From assembly GCA_019746155.1 (NCBI GenBank), contig JAIESJ010000226.1:1-59145 (forward strand): a DNA stretch of 59,145 nucleotides, written 5' to 3'. The translations under genes were made by a program, and so were the position numbers. The number at the start of each line of letters is the position of its first letter. The first letter of the stretch is position 1. The notes under the pieces are model-generated. The model did not search any database, had not been told where the DNA came from, and saw nothing but the letters and a program-made list of their open reading frames with translations. The stretch comes from Burkholderiales bacterium. Lineage in GTDB: Bacteria > Pseudomonadota > Gammaproteobacteria > Burkholderiales > SG8-41. Of the stretch, positions 26,254 to 51,989 are shown one piece after another.

Positions 26254-26382
26254 ATTGTCTCCTGTTGACAAATTCGCTTTATCCACAAACAAAACCTGAG
26301 CGCGTCTTACCCGGGAAACAGCGCGCATGCGGGGCGATGTCGCCGGCACTTATGCCTATGCATGGTCTGCATTCCTGATTCT

Positions 26383-30501: not shown

Positions 30502-30852
30502 TTAACGCCCTGTTTCCAATACCTCTATCGATTTGACGAGCTTCTCGCTTTTATCTGTGACATAGCTGACCGCCACAAGTTTTCCGCGCAGCGCGGGAAG
30601 ATAGAGATCTTCCTTGCCTTTTTTGATCGGGGTGCCGAGAGCGACCTTGAGGGTTATCTGATCCGGCTTGGCTCCTCCTTTGGTTTCGAGCGTAAGGTAG
30701 CCCTCGCATCCGCCGGGCTTAAACTGACAGGCGGTCAGCTTGGTGCTCACAACCGTTCCTTCAGCTTTTTCCTGGCCGAACCCAACTGATGGAAATAACA
30801 TTAACACAGACAATAATGCAGCGGGCAGGCTTAAGCCCAATCTTCTAAACAT
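30502..30852 (-). CDS. secreted 116-aa protein with C-x6-C pair, unknown function
   Basis: Signal peptide (LSLPAALLSVLMLFPSVGFG) and a mature part containing CQFKPGGC. Overlaps the stop of the upstream ABC ATPase by 8 nt. Confidence 0.6.
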   Translation of the reverse strand: MFRRLGLSLPAALLSVLMLFPSVGFGQEKAEGTVVSTKLTACQFKPGGCEGYLTLETKGGAKPDQITLKVALGTPIKKGKEDLYLPALRGKLVAVSYVTDKSEKLVKSIEVLETGR

Positions 30853-31714: not shown

Positions 31715-32969
31715 GTCGAATCGCCTCCATGGGAGATAGTCGTATGATCTGCCTGATGCTCCATGCGCTTCCCGCGATTGCGGCAAAAAGACACGCCATG
31801 ATCAGAATCCCGAGCGTTGCCGGCCCGAATCTTGGCGTTAAAGCAAGAGTGCTGGCGAGCGTGTTGTAGTGCGCTGGAAGGAAAGGGGTGATTCCCAGCC
31901 CGAAAATCAATTGTGCGAGCGGCCCGCCCCCCAGCGCAAAGAGGAGCGCTCCCGTCAAGGCGCCTATGGCGCACATCAGGACCGCCTCGGTAAGAAAACC
32001 GATGACTATGCCCGAATTCGATGCCCCGAGCGCCTTGAAGGTGCCGATCTCCCATGCGCGTTCGCGAACCACCAGCAACATCACGAAGAAGATAACGATC
32101 ACCATCAGCGCTGCGGCGAGCGCAATTCCGCTGCTTGCCAGACGTTGCACCGCACGCGTCGCGGTCGTCTGGAATTCGGCTACCGTCGTGGGTGAAATGA
32201 TGTCCGCAACATTACCCAGCGTGGCCCTGAGCTCCTTCTCAACTGCGGGAAGGTGCTCGGCGGAATCGGCACGCACGTAAAGCCACGAAATACCTTCGCG
32301 CACGCCGTAGACCTCGCGGAACGTGTCGAGCGGCATAAATAGCTGCATATCGCCGAAAACGTACCCACTTGCGTAAATGCCGACGATAGTGAGCGTCACG
32401 GGCGGACGATCCAGGGCGAAGATCACAGGATGGGTGCGCTTGAAATCGAGTGTGAGCGTCGCTTGTCCGATATCTTGCGGCTTTAAACCCGCCCACTTGG
32501 CAAAGCCCTGGCCGATGATTGCCACGCGCTTGCCGCGGTCCGCCTCCGTGAGATCGCGGCCGGCGATGATTTTTGGATTACCGGCTTCGCCATGCGATTC
32601 AAGCCGCCGCGTGTCATCCGGATCGACGCCGACCACCATGGCGAAGTTGTGGCCTTCGGTGGGGGTCATGGCAAGAAGGTAGGGCTCCGCTTTCGCGACG
32701 TGATCCACGCTTTTTACCTTCGCCAGCGCGTCCTGCGGCAGAATGTCTTCGTTACCGACCATATTGACGTGGCCCATCGAGCCGCGCGCCCGCAACTGGA
32801 GCGTGTTGTTGACGCTCTCCTTCAACACGTCGGTTTGCCGTTGCACGGCATCGCCAATCGACTCCATCACGAGGAGCAGGAAGAACGGCGTGCCGATGAG
32901 CGCAGCCACGAGAACGAGGCGCAGCTTGCTCCGCCAGAGATTGCGTACGCCTATACGGACCATGCTCAT
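31707..32969 (-). CDS. FtsX/MacB-type ABC permease with large periplasmic domain (second of two)
   Basis: 420 aa with an N-terminal motif VRNLWRSKLR, one TM, a periplasmic domain of about 220 aa, and three C-terminal TMs. Confidence 0.85.
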   Translation of the reverse strand: MSMVRIGVRNLWRSKLRLVLVAALIGTPFFLLLVMESIGDAVQRQTDVLKESVNNTLQLRARGSMGHVNMVGNEDILPQDALAKVKSVDHVAKAEPYLLAMTPTEGHNFAMVVGVDPDDTRRLESHGEAGNPKIIAGRDLTEADRGKRVAIIGQGFAKWAGLKPQDIGQATLTLDFKRTHPVIFALDRPPVTLTIVGIYASGYVFGDMQLFMPLDTFREVYGVREGISWLYVRADSAEHLPAVEKELRATLGNVADIISPTTVAEFQTTATRAVQRLASSGIALAAALMVIVIFFVMLLVVRERAWEIGTFKALGASNSGIVIGFLTEAVLMCAIGALTGALLFALGGGPLAQLIFGLGITPFLPAHYNTLASTLALTPRFGPATLGILIMACLFAAIAGSAWSIRQIIRLSPMEAIRHE

Positions 32970-34192
32970 GCCGTCCTCCGCATCGCTTCGACGGGGCTCA
33001 GCCGCAAGCCCCGGATGACCGGGTAGATGCTTCCCAGCGCGGCAAAAACCATCGATCCCACCAGAATCAACAGGACGACGTCGCGATCGAACTCCATCGG
33101 CACTCCAAGAACGCGCCCGACCACCGCTGTAAGCGGCGCTGCGAGCAGCAATGCGCCCGCACCGCCCAGCGCGCTCATCGTGAAAGCTTCAGAAAGAAAC
33201 TGCAACACGACTTCACGATTCGACGCGCCGAGTGCTTTGAGCGTACCGATTTCGCATATGCGCTCGCGCGTGCTCAGGATCATGACGAACACGGTGAGTA
33301 CGGCTCCGATCGCAAAGAGCAACACGGCCGCATACGTGCTCGCCACGGCAAGAGTTCCCAACGTCACGCGGGCCGTCGAGACGGATTCCGGCGCGGTCAC
33401 CACATCCGCTTCCGGGATGCTCTTCAAGTCGGCGACCACCCGTTCGACATTCGCCACCGAGTCTACGGTGACAAAGATTTTTGAGAGTTTTTTGCCGGGA
33501 TTGAAAGTTTCGCGAAACGCCGCAATCGGAATGAAGACATGGTTGTCGCCGAAGTCGTTGGCGGTCGTATAGATGCCGATCACGCGGAACGACTGTTTGT
33601 TGAACACGATGTGGCGTTCCACGCCTTCGAGAGCGGAAGGGTCAGCAAGCCCCAGGCGCTGTTCCGCATACAGACGGCCCACGATCGCGACGTTCGCATT
33701 CTCGTCTTCCGCCGCGAGGGAACGGCCTGCGACGATACGGGCGTTTTCGTAATCGACCTCGCCGATCGCGCGCAGCGCGGCCCCGGGATGAAGGCCGATC
33801 ACCATGGCATACGCATTTTTTTTCGACGGATCGACCTCCGGTTTGTAAACATATTCGTCGACGCGGGCCAAATGGCGAGCGCTTGGAGTTCTTAAAACCG
33901 CTTGGAGCGTATCCACGGAGAAATGCTCTTCGCCTACCGGCTTGTCACCCCCGAAGCCACCCGTTCCAAAGGCGCCCGCTTCGCGCAGCTCGATAAGCGT
34001 GCGAATGCGTCCTTCCATGCCGGAGACCTGTGCGCGGCTCGCGAAGGACGCTTGCACCATCAGGGCAAGAAAGCCCGTTACTATCGAGAGCAGCACCACG
34101 ACCACCACGGCTCTCGCTCTGTTTCGGAATGGGTTGATGAAACCGCGGCCAATCGCGCTCACGGCTACGCTCTGAAGTGCGCCATCACGCAT
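32966..34192 (-). CDS. FtsX/MacB-type ABC permease with large periplasmic domain (first of two)
   Basis: Same architecture as the neighbouring permease but clearly diverged. 4-nt overlap with the next gene. The start is ambiguous (ATG 34192 or 34231). Confidence 0.85.
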   Translation of the reverse strand: MRDGALQSVAVSAIGRGFINPFRNRARAVVVVVLLSIVTGFLALMVQASFASRAQVSGMEGRIRTLIELREAGAFGTGGFGGDKPVGEEHFSVDTLQAVLRTPSARHLARVDEYVYKPEVDPSKKNAYAMVIGLHPGAALRAIGEVDYENARIVAGRSLAAEDENANVAIVGRLYAEQRLGLADPSALEGVERHIVFNKQSFRVIGIYTTANDFGDNHVFIPIAAFRETFNPGKKLSKIFVTVDSVANVERVVADLKSIPEADVVTAPESVSTARVTLGTLAVASTYAAVLLFAIGAVLTVFVMILSTRERICEIGTLKALGASNREVVLQFLSEAFTMSALGGAGALLLAAPLTAVVGRVLGVPMEFDRDVVLLILVGSMVFAALGSIYPVIRGLRLSPVEAMRRTA

Positions 34193-34366
34193 CTTCCCTG
34201 GTTCGTGAATTCCGCCGCACGTTGTTCGCATAGCTTGAAAAACTCCAATAGCAAGCGGATTACTTGATCAAACCAAGCCTGATTTTGATTTGCCATAATG
34301 ATCAAGACGGCCATATCTTCGGCATAATTCCGCGCAAGATCGTCCTCGATCGATCCCACTCGACTC

Positions 34367-36820
34367 TCACGCCGCGTGCGCAATTGCGCTCGGGGGCGAG
34401 CCGCCTACGCTGCGCACGGCGTTGAAAAACAGAGACGCCTTTCCCCACAGCGAGTTGAAGAAGATCGCGGTGACACTGCCCGCCATCGCTGCCATTGCCC
34501 ACACCGGGTAGATAAGGCCCGTTGCGGCAACTGGAATGCCGATGCCGTTAAAGCAGAACGCGAGCACTACGTTCTGCACCATCTTGCGATAACCGCGGCG
34601 ACTGATGTCGCGGGCAACAAGAATCGATTCGAGACGATTGCCGAGAATGATGATGTCGGCGGACTCGATTGCGATGTCCGTGCCGCTGCCCATCGCGATG
34701 CCGACGTCCGCCTGCATCAGCGCAGGGGCGTCATTGATGCCGTCGCCGACCATCGCAACTTTGCCTCCTTGCTGTAGCTGGCGAATGATTTCTGCTTTTC
34801 CGTTAGGCAGCACACCCGCGTACACTTCGTCGATGCCAGCCTCGCGCGCTACGCGGTTAGCCGCGCGCTCGTTGTCGCCGGTGAGAAGAATGGGCTTGAT
34901 GCCGGCTTTGCGAAGCGCGGCAACTGTTTCAGCTGCGTCGGCGCGCAGGCGGTCACCCAGCGCGATGATGCCGAGGACATTGCCGTTGCGCGCGATCGCG
35001 ATCACGGTGCGCCCGAGTTCCTCCAATTCCTGAATACGTGAAGGAAGAGAACCCAGTTCGACACCTTCTTCCTCTAAAAACTTCGGACTTCCAACCAAAA
35101 TAGCGGCCCCCTCGATTCGAGCTCTTACTCCGCGGCCTGGAACTGCTACAAAGTCCGTTACCTCAACCGGCGTCACCTTGCGCTCAAACGCGATGTTTAC
35201 TATCGCCTGAGCCAGGGGATGCTCCGAGGATGTTTCTGCAGCGGCCGCAATTCCCAGCAATTTTTCTTGCGACGCTTCCAAGCCGATGATCTCTTGCACG
35301 AGCGGCTTCCCTTCCGTCAGCGTACCAGTCTTGTCCAATACGACATACTTGACCAGCCGATAAGCTTGAAATGCTTCACCCGTGCGCATCAGGATGCCAC
35401 GCTCTGCCGCTTCGCCCGCACCACGCACGATCGAAAGCGGCGCCGAAATTCCTACCGCGCAGGGGTAGCCCATGACGAGCACGCTTAATCCGGCGAACAC
35501 GGCGCGCTCGATGTCGACCTGTCCGGCCACAAGCCACGAACCGATCACCCAACTGACCACCGCGAGGGTCGCGATAGCAAGCACGGTCGGCGTGTAGACC
35601 CGCAGCACGCGATCGACCAGGTGTAGCAGTCCCGGCTTTAAGGCCCGCGCGTCCTCGACATGGCGAATCACTTGCTGCAGGAAGCTATCTTCGCCGATTG
35701 CAGTGACACGCACCAGCAGGGTTCCGATGCGATTCATCGAGCCGCCGACGACTTTGCTGCCTTGAGCTTTTTCGACGGGTATCGGCTCCCCACTCACCAG
35801 GGATTCATCGACTGCCGAATGACCGCTGACGACCTCTCCGTCCACGGGAATGCGCTCGCCGGGACGAATCCGCACGCTGTCGCCGACCTTTACTCGCTCG
35901 ATCGGAATTTCCTCCTCCCGCTCGCCACGCACCACTCGCGCAGTCTGGGGCTGCAGGTCCAAGAGCTTCTTGACGGCCTGCAAGCTTCTGGTTTTGACGA
36001 TCAGGGACAGCCACTCCGAGAAAACATGGTAGGTAACCACCATCACGGAGACGGCAAAAAATGACGCGGTCGGATAACCCACGGGTTGCAAGGTGAGACC
36101 GATGAGGCCACCGGCGATACCGGCGAAAGCGCCGATCTCGAGCAACACATGCTGGTTAAGAATTCCTCGTTTCAGCGCCTGAATTGCCATCATCAGGATG
36201 TGATTGGCGAGAGCGAAGACCATGATCAGCGCGAAGGCTCCCGTAATCCATGGGGTTGCTGACGCTAACCAGCCCTGAGACTTCGCGTAGTACAAAGCAG
36301 CCCCCAGCAGACATAAGCCAACGGCCCCTGCGATCGCGATGCCGAGTCCGCGGGGAGTCAGAACTACGAAGAACAGCGCGACCATGCTTCCGAAGACGAT
36401 CAGTGCGAGCAGCGTCGACCAGAAGCCGACCGGGTTTGCCACCAGCGCAATCGCGGCCAGACTGAAGCCAATGGCTGCGATAAACCGTTGTCCCTCGTGT
36501 ACCAGCGCCGCCTCTTCCTCTTCGAACGGCCGCAGCTTGCGCGGATCAGAAATGGTATAGCCGATGTCTTTGAGCGTTTGCAGCAGCTCTTCGGGACGCG
36601 CGACCTTCGGGTCATACTCGATGAGCGCCTGCTCGTGGGTCAGACTCACCGCGACCTTCTCGACACCGGGACGCTTCCCGAGTGCCTTCTCGATTGTTCC
36701 CGTGCACAGCGAGCAATGCAGTCCGCCGATGCGGGCGCGGATACGCGCCCGATCGGGACGATTCGACGGTTCTTCACTCCAGTAGCCGGCACTGGATTCA
36801 AGGGTGGCGAGATTGCTCAT
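34367..36820 (-). CDS. P1B-type heavy-metal ATPase with non-canonical Y-P-C membrane motif
   Basis: N-terminal HMA domain (GGLHCSLC) plus DKTGTLTEG, TGDNERAA and [10 protein letters not shown]. The TM motif is GYPCAVG rather than CPC. Start at ATG 36820 (MSNLATL...); the track ORF runs to 36859. Confidence 0.9.
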   Translation of the reverse strand: MSNLATLESSAGYWSEEPSNRPDRARIRARIGGLHCSLCTGTIEKALGKRPGVEKVAVSLTHEQALIEYDPKVARPEELLQTLKDIGYTISDPRKLRPFEEEEAALVHEGQRFIAAIGFSLAAIALVANPVGFWSTLLALIVFGSMVALFFVVLTPRGLGIAIAGAVGLCLLGAALYYAKSQGWLASATPWITGAFALIMVFALANHILMMAIQALKRGILNQHVLLEIGAFAGIAGGLIGLTLQPVGYPTASFFAVSVMVVTYHVFSEWLSLIVKTRSLQAVKKLLDLQPQTARVVRGEREEEIPIERVKVGDSVRIRPGERIPVDGEVVSGHSAVDESLVSGEPIPVEKAQGSKVVGGSMNRIGTLLVRVTAIGEDSFLQQVIRHVEDARALKPGLLHLVDRVLRVYTPTVLAIATLAVVSWVIGSWLVAGQVDIERAVFAGLSVLVMGYPCAVGISAPLSIVRGAGEAAERGILMRTGEAFQAYRLVKYVVLDKTGTLTEGKPLVQEIIGLEASQEKLLGIAAAAETSSEHPLAQAIVNIAFERKVTPVEVTDFVAVPGRGVRARIEGAAILVGSPKFLEEEGVELGSLPSRIQELEELGRTVIAIARNGNVLGIIALGDRLRADAAETVAALRKAGIKPILLTGDNERAANRVAREAGIDEVYAGVLPNGKAEIIRQLQQGGKVAMVGDGINDAPALMQADVGIAMGSGTDIAIESADIIILGNRLESILVARDISRRGYRKMVQNVVLAFCFNGIGIPVAATGLIYPVWAMAAMAGSVTAIFFNSLWGKASLFFNAVRSVGGSPPSAIAHAA

Positions 36821-36873
36821 GTTGTCACCTCGTTTTTGTAGCGCGCATCGTGATATCACGATGCCAGTCGATT

Positions 36874-37101: not shown

Positions 37102-37159
37102 TCTCCTATTGGGTTTTAACCGGACAATCCGGTCAGCCGAAAGGTGGAACTCGTTTGGA

Positions 37160-37190
37160 ATCTAAACCTTGGAGATAACTCCAAAGTCAA
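37160..37190 (-). promoter_or_regulatory. MerR-type promoter/operator upstream of copZ and the ATPase
   Basis: The minus strand reads TTGACT-TTGGAGTTATCTCCAAGGT-(T)TAGATT. The spacer is 19-20 bp and contains the dyad CTTTGGAG-N4-CTCCAAGG. Confidence 0.7.
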
Positions 37191-37263: not shown

Positions 37264-37827
37264 TTACTGGGCGTGCTTAACGCTATCGAGGAACCTGAGA
37301 TAGCTCTCGGGCAGCCCGTGTGCTCGTGCGCCCTCGCGGAGCAGCGTGATGTAGCGCAGCGATGGGTTACCATCCGCTTCGTTGCCGTCGGCAATGTAGG
37401 TCACCGCCTGGAGCGGCCGCCCGTCGATGTCTTCCGCATCAACCCATAGCGGACGGTAGCGGGGCCCCGGAACGCCTTCCGTCGCGTCCAGATGAACGAG
37501 GTCACGGCGCGTGATGCGATAGAGCACGCCCCACACCTCCGCCTGCGGGTCTACAACCAGATTGGCCGGTGCGGCCTTGCCTTTCGGGCGCCCTTCGAGG
37601 TTGAAGCGCAGGCAATACCCGCGCACCCGGCCGGCACGCCATTCCAACGGCCGCATGCCGCGCCGCTCGCGAAAAGCGCTGTCATGCATGTTGGCTCCGT
37701 AAGCGAAATACCAGATATTTTCTGTTGGAGGGCCGATAAGGCGGATGCCGTGGAGCCGGTAATAGCACCAGGAGAGCGCCCAGGACTTGGCCATGAGCCT
37801 GCGCAGCGTTCTTAACAGATTTCTCAT
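37264..37827 (-). CDS. gamma-glutamylcyclotransferase (GGCT/AIG2-like) fold protein, paralog 2
   Basis: 187 aa containing IWYFAYGANMHDSAFRERRGMRPLEW...VWGVLYRI. Similar along its length to the ORF at 40101-40631. Confidence 0.7.
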   Translation of the reverse strand: MRNLLRTLRRLMAKSWALSWCYYRLHGIRLIGPPTENIWYFAYGANMHDSAFRERRGMRPLEWRAGRVRGYCLRFNLEGRPKGKAAPANLVVDPQAEVWGVLYRITRRDLVHLDATEGVPGPRYRPLWVDAEDIDGRPLQAVTYIADGNEADGNPSLRYITLLREGARAHGLPESYLRFLDSVKHAQ

Positions 37828-39080
37828 CGCTCGCTGTCTCCAATCGGGATGGCGCGCAAGCGCCGGACCGTCAGGAATTGCACGGCGGCGGCGGTAAGGC
37901 TCACCGCAAAGACGGCGGCGAACGATCCCACTTCCGCCACCGCGCCGCCTGCCATCGGCAATAGCGCGGCTGGTGCGGCCAAGGCATTGAAGTAGCCGCT
38001 GTAAGCGGGGCGGCGGTCATCCGGCGAAATCTCCATCAGATAACCGAGGTAGGCGATGGTGCTGCCGTTCCCCACCGCGCCCAGGAGCGCGAAGACCACC
38101 GCGAAATAGGGTAGCGCCGCCGCGCCCCCACGCCCATCGTTGGCCATCCAGGCGAGGGTGAGGATCGGGGCCACGGCGCCGAGGGCGGCAACGATCTCCA
38201 GCAACTCGCGCTTGCCGCGCCGGTCCCCCCACCAGCCCCACAGGGGGTTGGAAAGCAATGCGCCTGCCGTCTGCGCCCCGAGCAGAAACGCCACGTCCGC
38301 CGCGGAATCTTTCGCCTGCAGGATGTAGAAGGGGAGCGCCATCGCCGCCGCGCCGCCGAGCCACTGTGCGATAAGGAAGAGGCGGAAGCGGCGGTCGCCG
38401 ACAAAGGTATCAAGACCACCACGCAGGAACTTCAGGAAGCCCGCTGCAACTGAAGGTTCCATCGGAGCCGTCGGCTCGCCGGCTGAAACGAAGGATACTG
38501 CAGAGATGAGGAGCAAGACCGCGCCGAGCAGCAGCAATGCCGCATAGCCGCCGGGGAACGGCAGGGCCTGGAGTATCCGGTACGCTGCTGCGGCCACGGC
38601 AAGCGCGAGGAGACCCCCGCCGAAGAAGCGGAGCGCCAGCATCCGGCTGCGCTGCGCCGCGGGGATTGAACGGGCGACGATGTCATTGTATGGCACCGCC
38701 ACGATGCCGCTGACGAAGGCATAGAGGGTCCAGAGCGCGAAGAATAGCGCGACCGCGGACGCACCCGGCGGATCGACTGCCAACCACAGCAATGCGGCGA
38801 GACCGGCGAGACACGCCACGCGTCCGAACGCGCCCGCCATGTAGAACGGCAGGCGCTGCGCGCGTCGCTGCGCGTAGTAAGCGACAAAGAGTTGCGGGAA
38901 CAGCCAGCCGAAACGGGCGATAGCCGCCGCCGCGCCGACTGCGAAGGCGCTGCCTGTTAGCCCATGCACAAGCGCCGCCACGACGGTGCTCGTATCGACT
39001 GCCGCCGCACCGCCCTGGAAAAAGATACCGGCGGCCGAGATGCGCCAGAAGCGCCGCTTCGACTCAGTCGCTTCGGACAC
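37824..39080 (-). CDS. MFS transporter
   Basis: 418 aa, about 12 hydrophobic helices. ATGA overlap with the downstream GGCT-like gene. Confidence 0.8.
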   Translation of the reverse strand: MSEATESKRRFWRISAAGIFFQGGAAAVDTSTVVAALVHGLTGSAFAVGAAAAIARFGWLFPQLFVAYYAQRRAQRLPFYMAGAFGRVACLAGLAALLWLAVDPPGASAVALFFALWTLYAFVSGIVAVPYNDIVARSIPAAQRSRMLALRFFGGGLLALAVAAAAYRILQALPFPGGYAALLLLGAVLLLISAVSFVSAGEPTAPMEPSVAAGFLKFLRGGLDTFVGDRRFRLFLIAQWLGGAAAMALPFYILQAKDSAADVAFLLGAQTAGALLSNPLWGWWGDRRGKRELLEIVAALGAVAPILTLAWMANDGRGGAAALPYFAVVFALLGAVGNGSTIAYLGYLMEISPDDRRPAYSGYFNALAAPAALLPMAGGAVAEVGSFAAVFAVSLTAAAVQFLTVRRLRAIPIGDSER

Positions 39081-40104
39081 GCTGCGCTCCCGCTTCCCGC
39101 AGGTCGGCGAGCACCACGCCTTGGCGCCACAGCGCCAGGGCGCCGATACTGGCGACGGTCAAGAGGTTCGACGCCTGCACCACCAGCACCATCGCGAGCG
39201 CCTTCTCTTCGCCGACGTCGAAGAGCCCGAGCGCGAAAATCGCGCCGATCACGAAGCTGCCCGGAATTTTCGCGAAAGCGCCAGCAATGTGCACGAACCC
39301 CAGGAACACCATCAGGAATAGGTACTGCGCCGTCTGCAAACCAGCGCCGAAGGCGAGGCCTGCCCACAGGAAATGCGTGGCGGCGAAAAGCTTGATGGTG
39401 ACGCTTGCGGCGACGATGCCGAAACCGCGCCAGAATTCGCGCGGCCAGACGATGCCTGTTGCGAAAGAGGCTGCAACGCGCTTCACGGGTCCGAGGACGC
39501 GCGCCGGCAGGCGCTCGATCGATCGCATGAACCATCCGCCCGGACGCAATGTCCTGCGCTTGTAGAGTGAAAGCGCGAGCAGCAGCACCGCGAACAATAC
39601 GAAGCTGCCGGAAGCGGCCCACGTGAGCCCCGCGCGAATATCGCCGGTCGGATCAGGGAAGACCACGAGCAGCAGCGCAACCGGTACGAGCAGCGCGAAG
39701 ATAATGCCGTCGGTCACGCGGTCGATGGCAACGGTCGCAAGCACGGCGCTCATCGCCAAGCTCTCGCGACGGGCGACGAGCCAGGCGCGCGCCAGCGCGC
39801 TGAAGCCGAAGGGAATGAGCAGTCCCGCCAAGTAACCCGCCATGATCGCGCCGAACAGATGAAGCGTACCGATGGACCGCATCGGGTAGAGGATCTGGCG
39901 CCATTTCCAGGCCCGCACCAACTGCTCGCCCGCGATAGCGAGCGGCACCAGCAGCAGCAAGCGAACGTCGGCGCCGGCGAGGACGGTGCGAAAACTGTCG
40001 AGATCGAAGCGCCGCAGCACCCAGGCGAGCGCCGCAATGCCGACCAGTGCGCCGAGCCACGGCCACCGTCGGCGCCAGCGGCTCCCCGCCGCGATTTCCG
40101 TCAC
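39064..40104 (-). CDS. MprF-type flippase-like membrane protein (LPG_synthase_TM/UPF0104-like)
   Basis: 346 aa, about 8 TM, with the N-terminus RRRWPWLGALVGIAALAWVLRRFDLDSFRTVLAGADVRLL typical of this family. No synthase domain is present. Confidence 0.6.
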   Translation of the reverse strand: MTEIAAGSRWRRRWPWLGALVGIAALAWVLRRFDLDSFRTVLAGADVRLLLLVPLAIAGEQLVRAWKWRQILYPMRSIGTLHLFGAIMAGYLAGLLIPFGFSALARAWLVARRESLAMSAVLATVAIDRVTDGIIFALLVPVALLLVVFPDPTGDIRAGLTWAASGSFVLFAVLLLALSLYKRRTLRPGGWFMRSIERLPARVLGPVKRVAASFATGIVWPREFWRGFGIVAASVTIKLFAATHFLWAGLAFGAGLQTAQYLFLMVFLGFVHIAGAFAKIPGSFVIGAIFALGLFDVGEEKALAMVLVVQASNLLTVASIGALALWRQGVVLADLREAGAQRVRSD

Positions 40105-40631
40105 TCTCTCGCCTCGATGCTATCGAGGAAGGCGATGTAGTCCGCAGGCAGCCCGCGCTGGCGCGCCGCCTCGCGGATCAGGTTCAGGTACTGAGGCCCC
40201 GGTCTCCCCTCCGGCGCTGCGTGCGGCACCTTGTAGGTCACCACGGGCAACCGGTTGCCGGCGAGGTCCTCCGCCTCGGTCCAGAGGTAGTCGTACTGCT
40301 TGCCTTCGCTGTTATCGAGTCGGGCGAACTTGCGCCGGGGCAAGAGATAGAGAGCGCCGTAAACCACGCTGCCGGGCGCCGCAACGATGTTGGCCGGAGC
40401 CGACACGCCGGGGCGCATGCCTCCGGCAGATGTGAACACCAAGCGGTAACCATCAAGGCGACCGACCCGTGACTCCAACCACTTCATGTGCCGGCGTTCC
40501 CGGAACAGGCGCTCGTTCATGTTGGAGCCGTAGGCGAAATACCAGACCGGGTCCGGAACCTTCGCCGGCGGCATGCGGCCACGGCGATACCGGATCCACC
40601 GCCGCAGTACGGCCCACACTACGCGGTTCAT
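40101..40631 (-). CDS. gamma-glutamylcyclotransferase (GGCT/AIG2-like) fold protein, paralog 1
   Basis: 176 aa containing VWYFAYGSNMNERLFRERRHMKWLES...VVYGALYLL. ATGA overlap with the flippase-like gene. Confidence 0.7.
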   Translation of the reverse strand: MNRVVWAVLRRWIRYRRGRMPPAKVPDPVWYFAYGSNMNERLFRERRHMKWLESRVGRLDGYRLVFTSAGGMRPGVSAPANIVAAPGSVVYGALYLLPRRKFARLDNSEGKQYDYLWTEAEDLAGNRLPVVTYKVPHAAPEGRPGPQYLNLIREAARQRGLPADYIAFLDSIEARE

Positions 40632-40656
40632 TCCGCGTGCTCAGTGGAGCGCACGA

Positions 40657-41343
40657 TCAAGCTTCAGTTCGATCCGGATATCCGGGATGTGAGCGCGCAA
40701 TCGACGCTCGCGCCGCTTGAGCTGGCTCACGCGCTGGGCGCGCTTGCGACGCCCTGCCGACCGCGACGATGCGCACATCCAGCGCTTTGCCTTTGGGCGC
40801 GCGACGCACTGATGAACGCCCCGTGCTGCAACCACAGAATTCACACATAGTTTCCTCCTTGCTTTCGAACTTTTCCGGATGAGAGGCGCGGGACGATTGT
40901 GCTCGCTCCGCCGGTCGCATGCAGCCGCATGTGTCCCATGTGCACTTCCGGCCCGCAGGCTGTCGCACGGGTGATATGAGATCTTCAATCGCCGTGCGTA
41001 GACCCATAAGATGACGAATCCGCTGGTCGATCTCGTGCAGGTGCCTTCTCAGGATCTGCTGGTACTCAGGCTGTCGGCTCGGACAGCCTCTGTCTTGGGC
41101 AAGAGCGACCATTTCGCGGATGTCGGCGAGGCTCAGGCCGAACAGCCGCGCATGGTGAATGAACTTCAGCCGGCCCACATCGGCTTCGGTGTAGAGGCGG
41201 TGGCCCGCGGTGTGCACCCCGCCGTTGGTCCGGCCCGCCTTGGGAATCAGACCAATCTCCTCATAGTAGCGGATGGTCTTGACGGATAGGTCGGATGCCT
41301 TGGCTGCCTCGCCGATCGAGAAAGTAACAGGTCGATCCATCAC
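40657..41343 (-). CDS. atypical MerR-family regulator with long Cys-rich C-terminal extension
   Basis: 228 aa with the wHTH FSIGEAAKASDLSVKTIRYYEEIGLI and a coiled-coil, followed by CTWDTCGC. An in-frame SD-preceded MCEFCGC segment follows that. AAGGAG RBS. Confidence 0.75.
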   Translation of the reverse strand: MMDRPVTFSIGEAAKASDLSVKTIRYYEEIGLIPKAGRTNGGVHTAGHRLYTEADVGRLKFIHHARLFGLSLADIREMVALAQDRGCPSRQPEYQQILRRHLHEIDQRIRHLMGLRTAIEDLISPVRQPAGRKCTWDTCGCMRPAERAQSSRASHPEKFESKEETMCEFCGCSTGRSSVRRAPKGKALDVRIVAVGRASQARPAREPAQAARASIARSHPGYPDRTEA

Positions 41344-41363
41344 AACTCCTTTTCTGCAGCACT

Positions 41364-41395
41364 AACATAAAGCCTCCAGTGGCTGGAGCTTCAAG
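41364..41395 (-). promoter_or_regulatory. MerR-type promoter/operator upstream of the atypical merR-like gene
   Basis: The minus strand reads TTGAAG-(19 nt containing CTCCAG-CCA-CTGGAG)-TATGTT, 23 nt upstream of the ATG. Confidence 0.6.
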
Positions 41396-41423: not shown

Positions 41424-42404
41424 TCATTTTCCGGGCCGCCACTTCTGGATGCGGTTGTTGCCGAAGTCGGCAACGAACACCGTGCCGTCATCAGCGGCTG
41501 CCACCGCGATCGCGTGATCGAGCTGGCCAGGGCCGCGCCCCTTGGCGCCGAAGCTGGTCAGGAATTCGCCGTCGGCGGTGAATTTCTGAATCCGATGGTT
41601 GTAGAAGTCGGCGACGAAGACGTTGCCGGACTGGTCAAGGGCCACCCGCGTCACCGTCGCGAACCAGCCGTTGAACGGCCCGAAAATGTTCATCGCAAAC
41701 GGCCCGCCCCACTTGCGCCGGAAAGCGCCATCGGGACCGAATACCTGAATGCGGTCGTTGTAGCCGTCCGCCGCGTAGAGCGTGCCGTCAGCGCCGAGGG
41801 CGACGTCGGTGGGATAATTGAACTGTCCCGCCCAGATGCCGATCTTGCCCGTCGTGCCCCATTGCCGGATGAAACTGCCGTCCGCCTTGAGGTGTTGGAT
41901 ACGGTGATTGTAAAAATCGGCGATGAACAGATCGCCGTTGGGCGCCACGGCGATGCCCCCGGGGGCATTAAATTCGCCGGGGCCGCTGCCTGACTTGCCC
42001 ATCGTCCGCTTGGATGTGCCGTCGAGACCGAAAACCTGCACCCGGTCGTTGAAATATTCGGCAACGTAGAGCTCGTTGCCGTGGATCGTGAGATTCATCG
42101 GCCGACCAAGCTTGCCGGGCTCAGTTCCTGGTGCGCCGAATTGACGTTTGAAATGACCGTCCGTGTCGAATACCTGGATGCGGCCGTTGCGGGAGTCGGA
42201 AACAAACACTTCGGCTCTCGCCACAGCGATCCCGGTCGGATCGTTGAACTGTCCCGGGGCGTCACCCTTGCCGCCCCACGCGGTCACGAACTGGTAAGGC
42301 GGTTCTTTCGCCGAAGGAACGAAAGCCACCCAGCCACCCACAGCGAGGAGCGCGAGCGCGATGACAGTATTACGGACAAACTTGAGGACAGTTTTAACGT
42401 TCAT
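41424..42404 (-). CDS. NHL-repeat six-bladed beta-propeller protein, N-terminally anchored/exported
   Basis: 326 aa with a hydrophobic N-terminus. Six repeats of the ...NGRIQVFD.DG.F...G.G.GQFN.P.G(I/V)A... type are present. Confidence 0.75.
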   Translation of the reverse strand: MNVKTVLKFVRNTVIALALLAVGGWVAFVPSAKEPPYQFVTAWGGKGDAPGQFNDPTGIAVARAEVFVSDSRNGRIQVFDTDGHFKRQFGAPGTEPGKLGRPMNLTIHGNELYVAEYFNDRVQVFGLDGTSKRTMGKSGSGPGEFNAPGGIAVAPNGDLFIADFYNHRIQHLKADGSFIRQWGTTGKIGIWAGQFNYPTDVALGADGTLYAADGYNDRIQVFGPDGAFRRKWGGPFAMNIFGPFNGWFATVTRVALDQSGNVFVADFYNHRIQKFTADGEFLTSFGAKGRGPGQLDHAIAVAAADDGTVFVADFGNNRIQKWRPGK

Positions 42405-42413
42405 GCCCGGTGC

Positions 42414-43310
42414 TCAGAAGTTGACCCGGAAGCCCGTGCTGAAAATGTAGTTGTTCTTGAGTGCGATGCCGTTGAGATTTTGCACGACCGGAACCTGAAT
42501 GCCGGCTTCCAGGATCCATTTCTGGGTCACGTATTGCAGTCCGGGCGATAAGAACAGCGTGGTTCCTCCCGAGTTCGGATCATCAACCCCGCCAATCCGG
42601 TTTTTCTCGACACGGACGAGGTTCGCTTCCAGCACACCGTAGAGGAAAGCGGGCACGCCACTACCGAGAGTCCGCGGCCAAAGGCGGTATTGGAAAGAAG
42701 CATCGAGCTTGGCGACGTTACCGAATCTGAAGCCGTTGGCCTCGCGGTTGGCATTGTAGCTCAACTGGCTGTCGATCTGATAAGCGAGCGTTTGATAGGT
42801 GGCCACCACGCCCCCCAGCGCATCCCATGAGCCCGTGCCGGGTTGAATGGGGGACGGAAGACGCCCGAGACCGTCTTGAGCATTATCACGTCCCGTCGGC
42901 GCTTTCACACCTAGGAAGGGGGAGACCCTGAAAGTACGTCCCGGCACATCGCTTTGGTAGGCGGTATAACGGCCAAACAACGTCAAGTCGCCGATGCCCT
43001 GGTCACTACGCGTGACGCGCTGTCCGCCCCTGTCCATGTCGAGACGTTTGTCGAGATAAGGCAGCATCCCGAACAAGGCGACATCCCGGGTTACGCCATA
43101 ACCCAGAACGGAAACGAGTCCGGAAACTTTCATGTCACGGTTTGCCGGGGAGGAATCGCGTGAGTTTTTGTCGTAGATAAACTGCTCGCGCCAGACCATG
43201 CCGCCCTCGTGGACCGGGAGTGCGGTATTGAAGGTGATGGGAGCGCTCCACACCACGCCGACCACGTTCAATGCGGCAAGAACGATGGAGAGGGGTGTGA
43301 ACGCTTTCAT
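42414..43310 (-). CDS. outer-membrane beta-barrel protein (MetA-pathway/'transporter' family-like)
   Basis: 298 aa with a signal peptide, alternating strands and a C-terminal ...STGFRVNF. Confidence 0.5.
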   Translation of the reverse strand: MKAFTPLSIVLAALNVVGVVWSAPITFNTALPVHEGGMVWREQFIYDKNSRDSSPANRDMKVSGLVSVLGYGVTRDVALFGMLPYLDKRLDMDRGGQRVTRSDQGIGDLTLFGRYTAYQSDVPGRTFRVSPFLGVKAPTGRDNAQDGLGRLPSPIQPGTGSWDALGGVVATYQTLAYQIDSQLSYNANREANGFRFGNVAKLDASFQYRLWPRTLGSGVPAFLYGVLEANLVRVEKNRIGGVDDPNSGGTTLFLSPGLQYVTQKWILEAGIQVPVVQNLNGIALKNNYIFSTGFRVNF

Positions 43311-43321
43311 GATGCGGTCTC

Positions 43322-43639
43322 CTATTTGGTTTGCGTAGCGGGCTGTACCGGCTCAAATTTACGCAGAGTAAAACCGGCATCCTTGACTGCCCGTTGCGCC
43401 GTAGCTTCATCGAGGCTTGCGCCCTCGGTCATCGTGACATTTACGGTACCGCTGGCGATGTCGACCTCGATCTTCTGGACGCCCTTTATCGCATTGAGTT
43501 TCTTTTCGATGCCATAGGCGCAGAACGGGCAAGCGAGTCCATCTACGCGGAGTTTGTAGGCCTGTTGAGCGGCAAACGCGCTCACTGACATCAACACCAG
43601 ACCCAGGATAAGCACTGTTCGCTGCCAAAAAACTTTCAT
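43322..43639 (-). CDS. periplasmic HMA-domain metal-binding protein (MerP-like)
   Basis: 105 aa with a signal peptide (LVLMSVSAFAA) and an HMA fold containing GLACPFCAYG. Confidence 0.8.
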   Translation of the reverse strand: MKVFWQRTVLILGLVLMSVSAFAAQQAYKLRVDGLACPFCAYGIEKKLNAIKGVQKIEVDIASGTVNVTMTEGASLDEATAQRAVKDAGFTLRKFEPVQPATQTK

Positions 43640-43670
43640 GATAGAAACCTCCGTATATAAATCATCCGCC

Positions 43671-44177
43671 CTACCTGTGCCCGTCCGGCCAAGTGATCAT
43701 CGGTATATTGATGACTACCCCCGGTTGTTCCACGGTGATTTCGCCTTTTGCGAGGGCCTGTGTCACTTCCGCGGCGCTTTTGAGTTCGCGCGCTTGCTGG
43801 GGTTGTTTCCAGGACACCAGTTTGAGCGCACGTAACGGCGTGTAGCCCGCGTGGCCCGGGGGGTTGTCGAAGACATCGGGCTGGAACTTGAAGGGGCCGT
43901 CACCAGGCACGCCATTGGTGAAAACGTAAACGTTCGCGAGCGCCTCCTTCGGCACACTGGCAAGTGAGGGCACAACGATGACCGGCGAGCCCTTCATGAC
44001 AGTCAGAAGATCCGCCACTTTCGGGTCCGACGCTTCGGTATGAATGAAGCGGATGCGCTGTCCCTCCATGAATCCGTCAACGGGGGGCACGACGAACCCC
44101 GTTTGCTGCCTCGCGACGAGGACGAATGCCCCGATGATCAATGCCACCAGCGCGGTGACAACCAGGTTACGCAACAT
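43671..44177 (-). CDS. membrane-anchored periplasmic protein of unknown function
   Basis: 168 aa from ATG 44177 (MLRNLVVTALVALIIGAFVLV...) with an AAGGAG RBS. No recognisable motif. Lies 24 nt after the ATPase stop. Confidence 0.6.
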   Translation of the reverse strand: MLRNLVVTALVALIIGAFVLVARQQTGFVVPPVDGFMEGQRIRFIHTEASDPKVADLLTVMKGSPVIVVPSLASVPKEALANVYVFTNGVPGDGPFKFQPDVFDNPPGHAGYTPLRALKLVSWKQPQQARELKSAAEVTQALAKGEITVEQPGVVINIPMITWPDGHR

Positions 44178-44201
44178 GAAAATCTCCTTGGACTGACACA
44201 C

Positions 44202-46706
44202 TCATGCGTTTGTCGCCGGCACACCATTAGCACTGACTTCGAAGCCACGCGTTACGATCGCCGCGCGAATACGTTCGGCGTCGGCCTTGTCCGCGTGGTA
44301 GGTGACGGTGACAAGTTTGCGGTCCGGATCACCGCTTACATTTTCAATGCCATCCATCTTCAGCACGGCCTCCGCAATCGAATCGACGCAATGCTCACAG
44401 TGCATGTTGGCAATGGTGTAAGTGACGCTGGCATGCCAGTCGCGGCTCTTGGCCGCCGGCAATAATTTCCCGGCGAACGAGTTGGTGAGTACCGTCGTCA
44501 CGCTTGCGGCCATGGCAATCATTGCCCACACCGGGTGGACGAGACCCGTTACCGCGAGCGGAATCCCGATTGCATTAAAGGAAAACGCGAGTGCAAGGTT
44601 CTGGACGGTCTTGCGGTACGATGCTTTGCCGATCTGGAAAGCGTCATTCACCGCGGCCAGGCGATGCCCTACTAAAACCACATCGGCCGATTCGATCGCG
44701 ATGTCCGTGCCGGCGCCAATCGCGATGCCGACGTCGGCCTGCATGAGGGCCGGGGCATCGTTGATGCCGTCGCCGACGAAGGCCACGCGATATCCCTGCC
44801 GCTGCAGATCCCGCACGGCTTGGGCCTTGTCCTCCGGCAAAACCTCGGCCCGAAACTCCTTGATACCGAGGCGGGTTGTAACCGCACGTGCCGTGCGGTG
44901 ATTGTCGCCAGTGAGCATGACCGGTTCCAGTCCCGCGGCGCGAAGTCCCTCAATGGCCTCTCCGGCGTCAGGCTTAATTTGATCGGCGATGGCGATCAAC
45001 GCAGCCAACCGCCCATCGACCGCGACCGCGATCACTGTGAACCCTGCCTCCTGCATCGATGCTTCACGCTCTTGCATGAATTCGATGCTGATTCCTTGAG
45101 ACTTCACATATGAAGGACTGCCGACGCAAACGCGGCGACCCTCGACCGTTGCTGCAACCCCTCGGCCCGGCACCGCGAGAAAATCCCGAGGATTGGGAAC
45201 CCGGATTTGCGCCGCTGCGGCCGCTGCCACGACGGCACGCGCGAGCGGATGTTCCGATACGCTCTCGACTGCCGCTGCCAAACGTAGCGTTTCGTTTCCG
45301 TCGTGGCCTTCGATCACCACGACTTCCGAGACGGCTGGCTTACCCAGCGTGATCGTGCCGGTCTTGTCGAGGATGATTTTTCGTATGTCTTTCAGGACCT
45401 GAAACGCTTCCGCCGATCGCATCAGAATCCCGCGCTCGGCGGCCATGCCGCCCCCGCGTATCATCGCAAGCGGGGTCGCCATTCCCAAGGCGCACGGATA
45501 TCCCATCACCAGCACCGCCAGCGCCGCAAAGACCGCGCGCGTCCAATCCGCAGCGCCGCTCATCCACCATGCGCCCGCGGTCCAGATGAATACCGCGGCT
45601 GCGGCGAAGAGCAGCACCGCCGGCACGTAGATCTGGAGGATGCGGTCGACCAGCGCGAGTAGTCCGGGCTTGAGCGCGCGCGCTTCTTCGACTTGCCGCG
45701 CCACCTGGCTAAGAAAACCTTCCTCGCCGACCTTGGTCACCCGCACAACCAGGGTGCCGAATTGGACGATGGAGCCGCCAATTACCGCATCGCCTTGGGT
45801 TTTTTCCGCGGGAATCGACTCGCCGGTCACCAGGCTCTCATCCACTCCGGATGCGCCCTCGACCACCATACCGTCCACCGGGATCGATTCGCCCGGGCGG
45901 ACACGAACCAGATCGCCGGGGGTGACTTGCTCTACCGGAACGATTTCTTCCGCGCCGTCCCGAATCACGCGCGCGGTGGCGGGCACCAGCGCCAACAGCT
46001 TGCGCACGGCTTGCGAAGCGCGTGTCCGGACCAGCAACGACACATAGCCGGAGAGCAGGTGGTAAGTCGTGACAAACACCGACACGCCGAAGAAATCGGG
46101 AACCGGAAATGCCGAATAGACGTAGCCGAGGAAACCGCCGGTGAGCCCGGCAAACGCTCCGAATTCCAGCAGCACATGCTGGTTCAAAATACCGCGCCGC
46201 AGGCTCGCCCACGCCATGGTGAGGATATGCCAACCGGGACCGAACATCGTGGAGAGCGCAAGAACCGGCATGAGCCAGTAGAGCGTTGCCATCCCTTGGG
46301 GCGGCAACTGCTCAAGCCACATCAGCGCCATGGCCCCGAGCGATATCGCGGCAAAGCCCGCTGCGACAAGAAGATTCTGCCGCTGCTGCCGGAGTTCGGC
46401 TTCCTGCTCTTCGTAGGCCCGGACCTTGTTCGGGTCGCGCACGGTGTAGCCGAGATCGAGCAGCGTCTCCTTGAGCTTTCCTGGAGTCACGATCGCCGGG
46501 TCGTATTCCACCAGGGCTTCTTCGTGGGCGAGGTTCACGTTCACACCGAGAACCCCGTCCATACGCCCGAGCGCCTGGGTGACGCTCGCCACGCAGAACG
46601 AGCACGCCATGCCGCCGATCTTGAACTGCAATTTGCTCGGCCGGGGGACAGGCGAAAACGTTTCTTGGGCGTTCACCGCCATGATCGGTTCGCCGCGCAG
46701 GCTCAT
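44202..46706 (-). CDS. P1B-type heavy-metal ATPase with Y-P-C motif and HMA domains at both termini
   Basis: N-terminal HMA (GGMACSFC) and C-terminal HMA (NMHCEHC), plus DKTGTITLG, TGDNHRTA and [10 protein letters not shown]. The TM motif is GYPCALG. An alternative start is ATG 46682. Confidence 0.9.
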   Translation of the reverse strand: MSLRGEPIMAVNAQETFSPVPRPSKLQFKIGGMACSFCVASVTQALGRMDGVLGVNVNLAHEEALVEYDPAIVTPGKLKETLLDLGYTVRDPNKVRAYEEQEAELRQQRQNLLVAAGFAAISLGAMALMWLEQLPPQGMATLYWLMPVLALSTMFGPGWHILTMAWASLRRGILNQHVLLEFGAFAGLTGGFLGYVYSAFPVPDFFGVSVFVTTYHLLSGYVSLLVRTRASQAVRKLLALVPATARVIRDGAEEIVPVEQVTPGDLVRVRPGESIPVDGMVVEGASGVDESLVTGESIPAEKTQGDAVIGGSIVQFGTLVVRVTKVGEEGFLSQVARQVEEARALKPGLLALVDRILQIYVPAVLLFAAAAVFIWTAGAWWMSGAADWTRAVFAALAVLVMGYPCALGMATPLAMIRGGGMAAERGILMRSAEAFQVLKDIRKIILDKTGTITLGKPAVSEVVVIEGHDGNETLRLAAAVESVSEHPLARAVVAAAAAAQIRVPNPRDFLAVPGRGVAATVEGRRVCVGSPSYVKSQGISIEFMQEREASMQEAGFTVIAVAVDGRLAALIAIADQIKPDAGEAIEGLRAAGLEPVMLTGDNHRTARAVTTRLGIKEFRAEVLPEDKAQAVRDLQRQGYRVAFVGDGINDAPALMQADVGIAIGAGTDIAIESADVVLVGHRLAAVNDAFQIGKASYRKTVQNLALAFSFNAIGIPLAVTGLVHPVWAMIAMAASVTTVLTNSFAGKLLPAAKSRDWHASVTYTIANMHCEHCVDSIAEAVLKMDGIENVSGDPDRKLVTVTYHADKADAERIRAAIVTRGFEVSANGVPATNA

Positions 46707-46809
46707 CGGGTGCGCCGGTGCGAGCCGGTGCGGGAGCTGGAAGCTGCCATCTCGAATTTCCGCGTTTTTTCCTTGACGCTGCCTCTGTGCCTTCCGGCCG
46801 CAAGCGCCA

Positions 46810-46840
46810 CTCTAGACCTTGGAGCCAAGTCCAAGGTCAA
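46810..46840 (-). promoter_or_regulatory. MerR-type promoter/operator upstream of the dual-HMA ATPase operon
   Basis: The minus strand reads TTGACC-TTGGACTTGGCTCCAAGGT-(C)TAGAGT, with the dyad ACCTTGGA-N6-TCCAAGGT inside a 19-20 bp spacer. Confidence 0.7.
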
Positions 46841-50354: not shown

Positions 50355-50355
50355 G

Positions 50356-51984: not shown

Positions 51985-51989
51985 TCGAG

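Follow-up and report, generated by a model that had tools for sequence, protein, structure and literature searches.

What does a MerR-controlled operon do when its other products look unlike any known metal-resistance protein, and yet lie among metal-resistance genes? We addressed this question for a locus in a 59,145-nucleotide stretch of DNA from a Burkholderiales bacterium (contig JAIESJ010000226.1, assembly GCA_019746155.1). Here "the window" denotes this whole stretch, and the loci of relatives in other genomes are coded L001, L005 and so on. The locus is a six-gene operon encoding, in order, a MerR-family regulator (merR-A), a small protein with a CxxCGC motif, a gamma-glutamylcyclotransferase-like enzyme (ggctA), an MprF-like membrane protein, a transporter of the major facilitator superfamily (MFS) and a second cyclotransferase-like enzyme (ggctB). 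We class it as a new putative soft-metal resistance locus under MerR control whose effectors have not been described before. None of the cassette proteins belongs to a known metal-resistance family. Full-text searches, which cover the literature outside subscription journals, found no description of the cassette, in agreement with a first-pass annotation of this DNA that had singled it out as the best candidate for an undescribed system.

That annotation, made from the DNA sequence alone, described five co-directional open reading frames (ORFs) on the minus strand, and their coordinates, 37264-41343, were as claimed. The regulator ORF (228 amino acids, 40657-41343) is followed, across the 25-nt gap that had been described (40632-40656), by ggctA (40101-40631), the MprF-like gene (39064-40104), the MFS gene (37824-39080) and ggctB (37264-37827). 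We found both the 17-nt overlap at 39064-39080, where the start codon is GTG, and the ATGA overlap at 37824-37827. The genes also overlap at 40101-40104, but the sequence there, earlier read as ATGA, is GTGA, a GTG start over a TGA stop. The gene overlaps of the cassette recur in other genomes. Scans for ordinary sigma-70 promoters and terminators within the operon gave results at chance level, none of them convincing, and an Rfam search of the operon detected no RNA element. All five ORFs scored above the Pfam gathering cut-offs for the families proposed for them, ruling out their assignment to unrelated families.

The description failed at the regulator. It had been taken as a single gene, and the 228-amino-acid ORF turned out to be a MerR sensor and a separate small gene fused in frame. 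The MerR-A part (40849-41343, with a likely ATG start at 41340) matches Pfam MerR_1, MerR and MerR-DNA-bind. The small gene (40657-40848) has its own ribosome-binding site, a Shine-Dalgarno sequence in the arrangement AAGGAGGAAACT-ATG (AAGGAGG-N5-ATG at 40848), and encodes a basic protein of 63 amino acids, MCEFCGC...GKALDVRIVAV.... MerR-A orthologues are ~160-190 amino acids long, and their alignment ends at about residue 165, against 228 in the window ORF. At least 16 loci carry, between MerR-A and the next gene, an ORF that starts MCE[FLMYC]C(GC) and contains the motif GKxLxVR[IV]VA. In a close relative (L170) the small gene was called separately (P0241, 60 amino acids, 73% identical to the tail of the window ORF), and there it overlaps the MerR-A stop codon in a different frame. 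The frame change in the MerR-A tail that joins regulator and small gene in one frame occurs in the window only. This change (window 40849-40900 compared with L170 1000-1120) may be a real fusion or an assembly error of 1-2 nt. Interpretation of the tail as a HypB-like sensory extension was rejected, since it is absent from the orthologues and is a separate gene in relatives.

The small protein is mostly missed by gene callers. It scored 14-18 bits against the NCBIfam model HypB_prefix_1, below the cut-off of 30, with the MCxxCGC motif conserved, and no curated family matched it above threshold. A word-index search with the protein gave no matches, and an exhaustive search gave three small relatives only. 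Like the N-terminal metal site of HypB, the protein starts with M-C-x-x-C-G-C; unlike HypB, it has no GTPase domain and continues into a short basic tail with a GKxLxVRIVA motif. Whereas the context of HypB is hydrogenase maturation, that of the small protein is soft-metal resistance. One locus (L085), a candidate natural form of the cassette without the MprF-like gene, was rejected as a deletion derivative; its 90-amino-acid ORF joins the small CxxCGC gene to a remnant of the MprF-like gene that encodes only the final ~40 residues.

What controls the operon? The MerR-type promoter with a 19-bp spacer that had been proposed can be read in the sequence (41364-41394, minus strand), with a -35 element TTGAAG (41394-41389) and a -10 element TATGTT (41369-41364). 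A scan for dyads in promoter spacers located an operator, CTCCAG-N3-CTGGAG, at 41374-41388. Only one perfect copy of the dyad exists in the window; at one mismatch or less there are two matches, against 0.15 expected in shuffled sequences, and no shuffle reached two. All nine other loci that we examined (L005, L006, L040, L043, L048, L065, L067, L068 and L083) keep the promoter and operator in front of their MerR-A orthologue, indicating that they did not arise by chance, and further metagenome loci carry them as well.

MerR-A itself fits a metal-responsive activator of the MerR family, with a helix-turn-helix domain, a coiled coil, a cysteine ligand pattern and a dyad in a 19-bp spacer. Among proteins of solved structure CadR is nearest to it (6JGF, E=3e-14), and a PbrR-like protein, MerR and CueR come next. 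With the CadR, PbrR, ZntR and MerR sensors it shares the helix-turn-helix, the dimerisation helix, a cysteine at the position equivalent to Cys79 of divalent-metal MerR sensors, a C-terminal cysteine loop and the placement of the dyad. It differs from them in several respects. It scores far below every cut-off of the NCBIfam equivalogs CueR, ZntR, CadR/PbrR and MerR, and its helix-turn-helix domain has an unusual five-residue wing insertion, RTNGGVHTAGHR. Its loop reads C-[ST]-W-x-T-C-[GE]-C-M (C-x5-C-x-C), a pattern that, together with the Cys79-equivalent, is conserved over 10 orthologues. The operator half-sites, CTCCAG/CTGGAG with a gap of 3-4 bp, are different, and merR-A is the first gene of its own operon instead of being divergently transcribed. 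MerR-A is probably a sensor of thiophilic metals that would switch the operon on.

To define the cassette we compared gene order across genomes, with counts taken from tblastn censuses. A six-frame ORF single-linkage clustering of the neighbours had been dropped, as it lumped together Ala-rich and HMA proteins that are unrelated and allowed antisense ORFs to take the place of real genes. Homologues of the MprF-like protein form 977 sequence clusters and those of GGCTb 2135. The best match of the MprF-like protein, at 92% identity, is in a Burkholderiaceae isolate. The cassette spans Alpha-, Beta- and Gammaproteobacteria, Nitrospirota, Binatia and SAR324, and it also occurs on plasmids, including a conjugative Indioceanicola plasmid and a Sulfitobacter plasmid. 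A scan centred on the MprF-like gene, limited to one genome per species, yielded 80 loci. Among the 59 with enough downstream sequence, 25 have MprF-like-MFS-GGCTb, 6 have MprF-like-GGCTb and 27 have the MprF-like gene alone; lone genes of this kind also occur in copper islands, and their neighbours are often multicopper oxidase, cupredoxin, DUF411, DsbD-like, thioredoxin-like and MerR genes. A second scan used metagenome loci centred on GGCTb. Here ggctB directly follows the MFS gene in 32 of 36 loci, the MFS gene follows the MprF-like gene in 28 of 30, and the MprF-like gene follows ggctA in 12 of 22 (14 of 71 among the genome loci). The notion that the MprF-like gene is the core of the cassette was therefore dropped, this gene being alone in 27 of 59 loci while ggctB nearly always stands behind MFS and MprF-like genes. 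GGCTb is the most constant member. The quartet GGCT-flippase-MFS-GGCT, put forward in the first-pass annotation, is conserved as a unit elsewhere, but it is only one form of the cassette: the commonest unit is MprF-like-MFS-GGCTb, with GGCTa present in roughly half of the cases. A GGCTb subclade with GVPWWRY in place of GVPGRRY (L088, L122, L124, L125, L136) occurs alone, without MFS or MprF-like genes, and adjoins transposase, insertion sequence (IS) and SOS-response peptidase genes.

The gene neighbourhoods connect the cassette to mercury. It had been said of the region that neither the cyclotransferases nor the flippase is part of any canonical metal determinant. This is true of the proteins, but it misses their context, for the cassette is found repeatedly in mer loci. 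The canonical proteobacterial mer operator (merO) is TCCGTAC-N4-GTACGGA within a 19-bp spacer (consensus, PMC1526738). A canonical merO lies directly before DUF7482-MprF-like-MFS-GGCT in the cultured Indioceanicola plasmid (L001), 24 nt after merR and beside merTPFA. The same plasmid has a second MerA-like FAD oxidoreductase (12999-14345) after merA, ahead of merR and the cassette. Canonical merO sites also precede merR-ggctA-MprF-like-MFS-ggctB in L054 and, in L050 and L158, a merR gene followed by genes for an HMA protein, an outer-membrane barrel (OMP) and an NHL propeller and then by MprF-like-MFS-ggctB; in L116 the site is 35 nt before the MprF-like gene. In L067 a canonical merO promoter stands in tandem with the MerR-A promoter, and in L043, L117 and L142 a canonical merO is divergent, with merT on one side and MerR-A on the other. 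The regulators of L050, L158, L054 and L130 have cysteines at the Hg-MerR-type positions, and those of L145 and L074 lack the first of them. In the window's lineage, control lies with a dedicated MerR paralogue and its conserved operator; in other lineages a canonical Hg-MerR promoter, recruited independently, has replaced the dedicated promoter.

Within the fetched flanks, at a distance of up to 10 kb, merA was present in 12 of 33 cassette loci (12 kb or longer) against 1 of 17 loci with the MprF-like gene only (Fisher p=0.04), a comparison that is indicative only since it pools two differently drawn samples. Cassette loci usually carry merT and merP too. The cassette resembles mer operons in having a MerR-family activator on a 19-bp-spacer promoter, sometimes with the canonical 7-4-7 mer operator itself, in being sometimes divergent from merT-merP-merA, and in that a MerP-like periplasmic HMA protein is often co-encoded. 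In contrast, no cassette protein is homologous to a known mer structural gene product, MerT, MerC, MerF and MerE have cysteine pairs that the cassette transporters lack, and the window copy is under a regulator and an operator of its own, with neither merA nor merT close by. The best explanation of these patterns is that the operon would serve as an accessory module of mercury-type and soft-metal resistance islands.

The cassette could also be no metal system at all, being instead a set of genes for detoxifying glutathione conjugates of xenobiotics or drugs, or one that hitch-hikes in metal islands. There are regulators of the MerR family that respond to drugs or oxidants, metal islands collect unrelated cargo, and the solitary ggctB copies lie beside IS elements. 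We consider this very improbable, given that MerR-A has the cysteine pattern of a metal sensor and CadR, PbrR and MerR as its nearest relatives, that the cassette stands directly behind canonical Hg-MerR promoters in independent lineages, and that a CxxCGC protein is encoded inside the operon.

What could the effector proteins do in a metal island? The two cyclotransferase-like proteins are paralogues, as had been claimed, with 47% identity over 149 amino acids. GGCTa and GGCTb scored 44.8 and 64.0 bits against Pfam AIG2_2 (cut-off 27; E=1.7e-11 and 1.8e-17), and the pair scored 37.6 and 38.4 bits against GGACT (cut-off 22.8; 3.9e-9 for GGCTa). GGCTa has a YGSNM loop, a catalytic-type Glu in LDNSEG and an Arg/Trp-rich amphipathic N-terminal helix with a hydrophobic moment of 0.79. 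GGCTb has a YGANM loop, Glu117 and a conserved amphipathic N-terminal extension with a hydrophobic moment of 1.05. Searched with phmmer, GGCTb matched human GGCT (2PN7) at E=5e-12, and its Glu117 (LDATEGV) aligns with the catalytic Glu98 of the human enzyme (LDEQEGV), which is Gln in the mutant entry 3CRY. Glu117, Gly44 and Asn46 are invariant in the 41 sequences of the GGCTb alignment. An AlphaFold2 model of GGCTb (pLDDT 90.9), compared by Foldseek, matched human GGCT best (3CRY, 2RBH and 2I5T; TM-scores 0.76-0.80, root-mean-square deviation 2.2-2.8 A, E down to 2e-13). The best of these matches had a target-normalised TM-score of 0.80 and a deviation of 2.2 A, and the model is nearer to human GGCT than to ChaC2 (TM-score about 0.6) or GGACT. 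Both enzymes carry an intact GGCT active-site signature. GGCTa contains no cysteine and GGCTb two, neither of them conserved. In both proteins the Arg/Leu/Trp N-terminal helices are conserved and strongly amphipathic, and there is no signal peptide, suggesting that the enzymes are cytoplasmic and located at the membrane surface.

The pair shares its superfamily and chemistry with ChaC and ChaC2, and ChaC has a historical association with cation transport; yet the Pfam ChaC score is below threshold for the GGCT-like protein, and the structure is closer to GGCT proper. The other point of comparison is the eukaryotic gamma-glutamyl cycle and mercapturate route (GGT, GGCT/C7orf24 and 5-oxoprolinase), by which the kidney handles Hg-glutathione. 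The enzyme is of the same GGCT type, with the same catalytic Glu and fold, and a transporter paired with a cytoplasmic cyclotransferase reproduces the cycle's scheme of transport followed by cleavage. The operon differs from it in being bacterial and metal-regulated and in having enzymes with putative membrane-anchoring helices. No GGT or 5-oxoprolinase gene was detected among the genes identified in the window or in the annotated loci.

The enzymes could act simply in managing the thiol pool, by a ChaC-like degradation of gamma-Glu-Cys or glutathione-type peptides under metal stress in which no metal conjugate is transported. Such degradation would reset the thiol buffer or free cysteine, and the MFS protein would export 5-oxoproline, Cys-Gly or cysteine. 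The GGCT/ChaC superfamily fold with its catalytic Glu speaks for this possibility, as does the lack of conserved metal ligands in the transporters, and a plant GGCT is reportedly protective against heavy metals through glutamate recycling. However, the conserved putative membrane tethering of both enzymes, the dedicated CxxCGC protein, the MprF-like partner and the co-operonic periplasmic HMA protein would be left unexplained, and destroying the thiol buffer under soft-metal stress looks counter-productive. We regard thiol-pool management by itself as unlikely.

The first of the two membrane proteins, the MprF-like protein (346 amino acids), matches the LPG_synthase_TM family (PF03706) with 88.5 bits (cut-off 33.4; E=7.4e-25) over profile positions 2-301 of 302. 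A Foldseek search with its AlphaFold2 model (pLDDT 88.6) returned MprF flippase domains as the top five matches (9J8Q, 9GOE, 7DUW, 7F47 and 9J8S; probability 1.0), with query-normalised TM-scores of 0.52-0.63, and these were the only significant structural relatives. Neither the protein nor the operon contains an aminoacyl-phosphatidylglycerol synthase domain. The model has the MprF-flippase fold, and lipid translocation is a prediction. The protein resembles MprF and UPF0104/YbhN in its whole-profile match to PF03706 and in a predicted fold that superposes, but it differs from MprF in having no C-terminal synthase domain and an identity of only about 15%; the context of MprF is cationic-peptide resistance, whereas that of the cassette is metal resistance. 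Two loci (L084 9407-13415 and L093 19737-20501) have a variant in which the MprF-like gene is flanked by a HesB/IscA-like gene and a paralogue of prolipoprotein diacylglyceryl transferase (Lgt), with an MFS gene after these and no GGCT. This variant hints at a lipid or lipoprotein role for the MprF-like protein alone.

The second membrane protein matches MFS_1 with 55.3 bits (cut-off 33.4) and MFS_2 with 34.6 (cut-off 27), and hydropathy indicates ~10-12 hydrophobic segments. It weakly matches the TIGR00900 H+ antiporter family (EntS/DHA3; 47.6 bits against a cut-off of 319.6), and with 18.8 bits against a cut-off of 600 it shows no more than a resemblance to the FslB exporter. Searches of PDB sequences with the two membrane proteins gave no matches. 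The MprF-like protein contains no cysteine and the MFS protein one, which is not conserved; no conserved Cys, His or Met was found in either, for the MFS protein in an alignment of 58 sequences. A bare soft-metal ion is thus an unlikely substrate, and a role of the two as MerT-like carriers of bare Hg(II) was rejected on the same grounds.

These proteins might instead remodel envelope lipids: the MprF-like protein would flip a modified (amino)lipid, the membrane-bound cyclotransferases would remove or process a gamma-glutamyl-type head-group, and the MFS protein would be an accessory, the outcome being an altered surface charge or lipids shielded from metal binding. This fits with MprF lipid flippase domains being the only solved relatives of the MprF-like protein, with amphipathic anchors that would put the enzymes at a lipid surface, and with homologues lacking the GGCT and MFS partners beside an Lgt paralogue (L084) and in copper islands. 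On the other hand, the cassette has no gene for lipid synthesis or aminoacyl transfer, ggctB pairs more tightly with the MFS gene (the 32 of 36 loci above) than with anything lipid-related, and we know of no gamma-glutamylated bacterial membrane lipid. We think lipid remodelling quite unlikely.

We prefer, tentatively and at somewhat less than an even chance, a model in which gamma-glutamyl thiol-metal conjugates are trimmed by the enzymes of the operon and carried over the inner membrane by its transporters. As the cytoplasmic thiol pool became loaded with Hg(II) or a comparable metal, the small CxxCGC protein would capture metal, as a buffer or chaperone. The two cyclotransferases, held at the inner membrane face by their amphipathic N-terminal helices, would act on metal thiolates of the gamma-Glu-Cys type or derived from glutathione, releasing their gamma-glutamyl residue as 5-oxoproline. 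What remains, a Cys-type conjugate, would then cross the inner membrane by way of the EntS-like MFS protein and the MprF-like translocator and, in many genomes, would be received by an HMA protein in the periplasm, an NHL propeller and a channel in the outer membrane. The net result would be a cytoplasmic, metal-dedicated arm of gamma-glutamyl-cycle or mercapturate logic. We count in its favour the tight gene coupling, which is conserved in other genomes; the conserved operator, the MerR-A cysteine pattern, the link to mercury and the canonical merO promoters; the GGCT match with its catalytic Glu, the amphipathic helices and the adjacency of the MFS gene and ggctB; the weak likeness of the MFS protein to H+-antiport exporters and the lack of conserved soft-metal ligands in both membrane proteins; the three-cysteine N-terminal motif of the small protein; and a trio of envelope genes, co-operonic with the cassette in several genomes and with a P1B exporter in the window.

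In the window this trio (41424-43639) lies just upstream of the cassette promoter and forms the tail of the operon of an upstream ATPase, denoted ATPase2. Identified by Pfam and all on the minus strand, its genes encode an HMA protein with a signal peptide (43322-43639), an outer-membrane barrel of the Phenol_MetA_deg family (42414-43310) and a membrane-anchored NHL beta-propeller (41424-42404). The trio adjoins the cassette in L029, L031, L043, L050, L065, L068, L069, L074, L133, L145, L150, L158 and L160, and in L037, L050 and L158 it abuts the MprF-like gene in the same transcription direction. It stands behind canonical mer promoters in L050, L145 and L158.

In which direction would the conjugate move? 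Export is more likely, since the MFS protein resembles exporter families and the trio is apparently co-transcribed with an efflux ATPase in the window. The operon could conversely be an uptake arm, importing extracellular or periplasmic gamma-glutamyl-thiol metal complexes whose ligand is stripped by the cytoplasmic cyclotransferases for MerA or the P1B ATPases. The route would lead from the OMP, HMA and NHL proteins to the MFS and MprF-like proteins, with, for example, Hg-glutathione processed by a periplasmic GGT to gamma-Glu-Cys-type species, in parallel to the MerP-MerT-MerA route and to Meister's gamma-glutamyl cycle. Uptake would agree with a cytoplasmic enzyme that has no signal peptide and is encoded 3' of the transporter with a stop/start overlap, as in import-then-catabolise systems, with the MerP-like periplasmic HMA protein and outer-membrane barrel in cassette operons behind a canonical mer promoter (L050 and L158), and with merA adjacent in about a third of the long loci. 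Yet cassette loci usually have merT and merP, so that a second uptake route is not obviously needed, and the window is without merA. The likeness of the MFS protein to exporters, weak as it is, and the co-transcription of the trio with the efflux ATPase also argue against uptake, and we judge it improbable.

Several points weigh against trimming and export of metal conjugates. Human GGCT does not cleave glutathione, and MprF-type domains are known as translocators of lipids, not of solutes. The lone MprF-like genes and the solitary GGCTb subclade indicate that the parts are not strictly interdependent. The merA comparison, as said, is only indicative, and because metal islands often contain mer operons, the association may partly reflect island clustering. 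Neither merA nor merT nor a canonical merO was found in the window; their lack and the position of the cassette in a copper/silver island with cus genes and atypical ATPases mean that the inducer here may be Cd, Pb, Zn, Cu, Ag or Au instead of Hg.

What surrounds the operon in the window? The first-pass annotation had placed it between two P1B-ATPase operons. P1B ATPase genes do lie on both sides, but the gene next upstream of the promoter is the NHL gene and not an ATPase gene. Both ATPases (ATPase1, 34367-36859, and ATPase2, 44202-46706; minus strand) have YPC in place of the usual CPC (GYPCAVG/GYPCALG) and AMAGS in place of the Cu-type MxxSS, and they matched only the generic heavy-metal P1B subfamily model and neither a CopA nor a ZntA equivalog. 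ATPase1 has orthologues (60-72% identity) beside the cassette in L005, L015, L019, L040, L062, L065, L111 and L120. The genes for ATPase2, a signal-anchored DUF7482 protein and the HMA, OMP and NHL proteins (41424-46706, minus) are separated by gaps of 0-31 nt, apparently as one operon, which could provide a P-type-ATPase-based trans-envelope metal route. A downstream MerR-type promoter (37159-37190, minus; TTGACT, 19 bp, TTAGAT; operator TTGGAG-N4-CTCCAA) serves the operon of an HMA chaperone and ATPase1, and another with a 19-bp spacer and the same operator type (46809-46840, minus) precedes the ATPase2 operon. The two share a ZntR/CadR-like operator of the ACCTTGGA-N6-TCCAAGGT type. A second regulator, MerR-B (30115-30441, minus), is the likely cognate regulator of both ATPase operons; it has CC at the Cys79 position and a C-x9-C-P loop, and many cassette loci also have an orthologue of it (71-87% identity). 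As a model for the flanking ATPases, the Sb(III) ant operon was rejected, AntR being an ArsR-family protein without a link to this region. Directly downstream of ATPase1 is a MacB-type ABC system (30845-34231). The rest of the window (23824-26349, 47220-56516 and 57978-58625) is a dense copper/silver island, which includes cusCBA, whose CusB carries a fused CusF domain, along with cusRS, a further CusF-domain protein and a third P1B ATPase, the N-terminal domains of which are YHS and HMBD.

Mercury and soft-metal loci are among the best-studied gene sets, yet this cassette, present in thousands of sequence clusters, at least six lineages and on plasmids, has no name or curated family assignment that we could find. 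Cultured carriers exist, among them Indioceanicola profundi SCSIO 08040 (plasmid NZ_CP030129) and, with the full quartet, Marinobacter gelidimuriae BF04_CF-4, so the predictions can be tested directly, and MerR-A with its operator offers a new sensor/promoter pair for biosensing. It is possible, though we hold it doubtful, that the operon represents an unrecognised ligand-directed defence against soft metals, chiefly mercury, which would combine MerR-controlled, membrane-organised GGCT trimming with MFS/MprF-like translocation, assisted by the CxxCGC protein as a new mini-chaperone and, in many genomes, by the HMA, NHL and outer-membrane proteins as a relay through the envelope. If this is true, it would be the first prokaryotic counterpart of the gamma-glutamyl-cycle or mercapturate route for metals, adding an enzymatic "ligand-processing" step to metal detoxification, and a stand-alone MprF-type domain would for the first time have a non-lipid, or new-lipid, role. 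It would also explain what bacterial cyclotransferases of the C7orf24 type and stand-alone MprF-like (UPF0104) proteins do, and would tie glutathione and the gamma-glutamyl cycle directly to bacterial mercury handling, which could affect the speciation and bioavailability of mercury in the environment.

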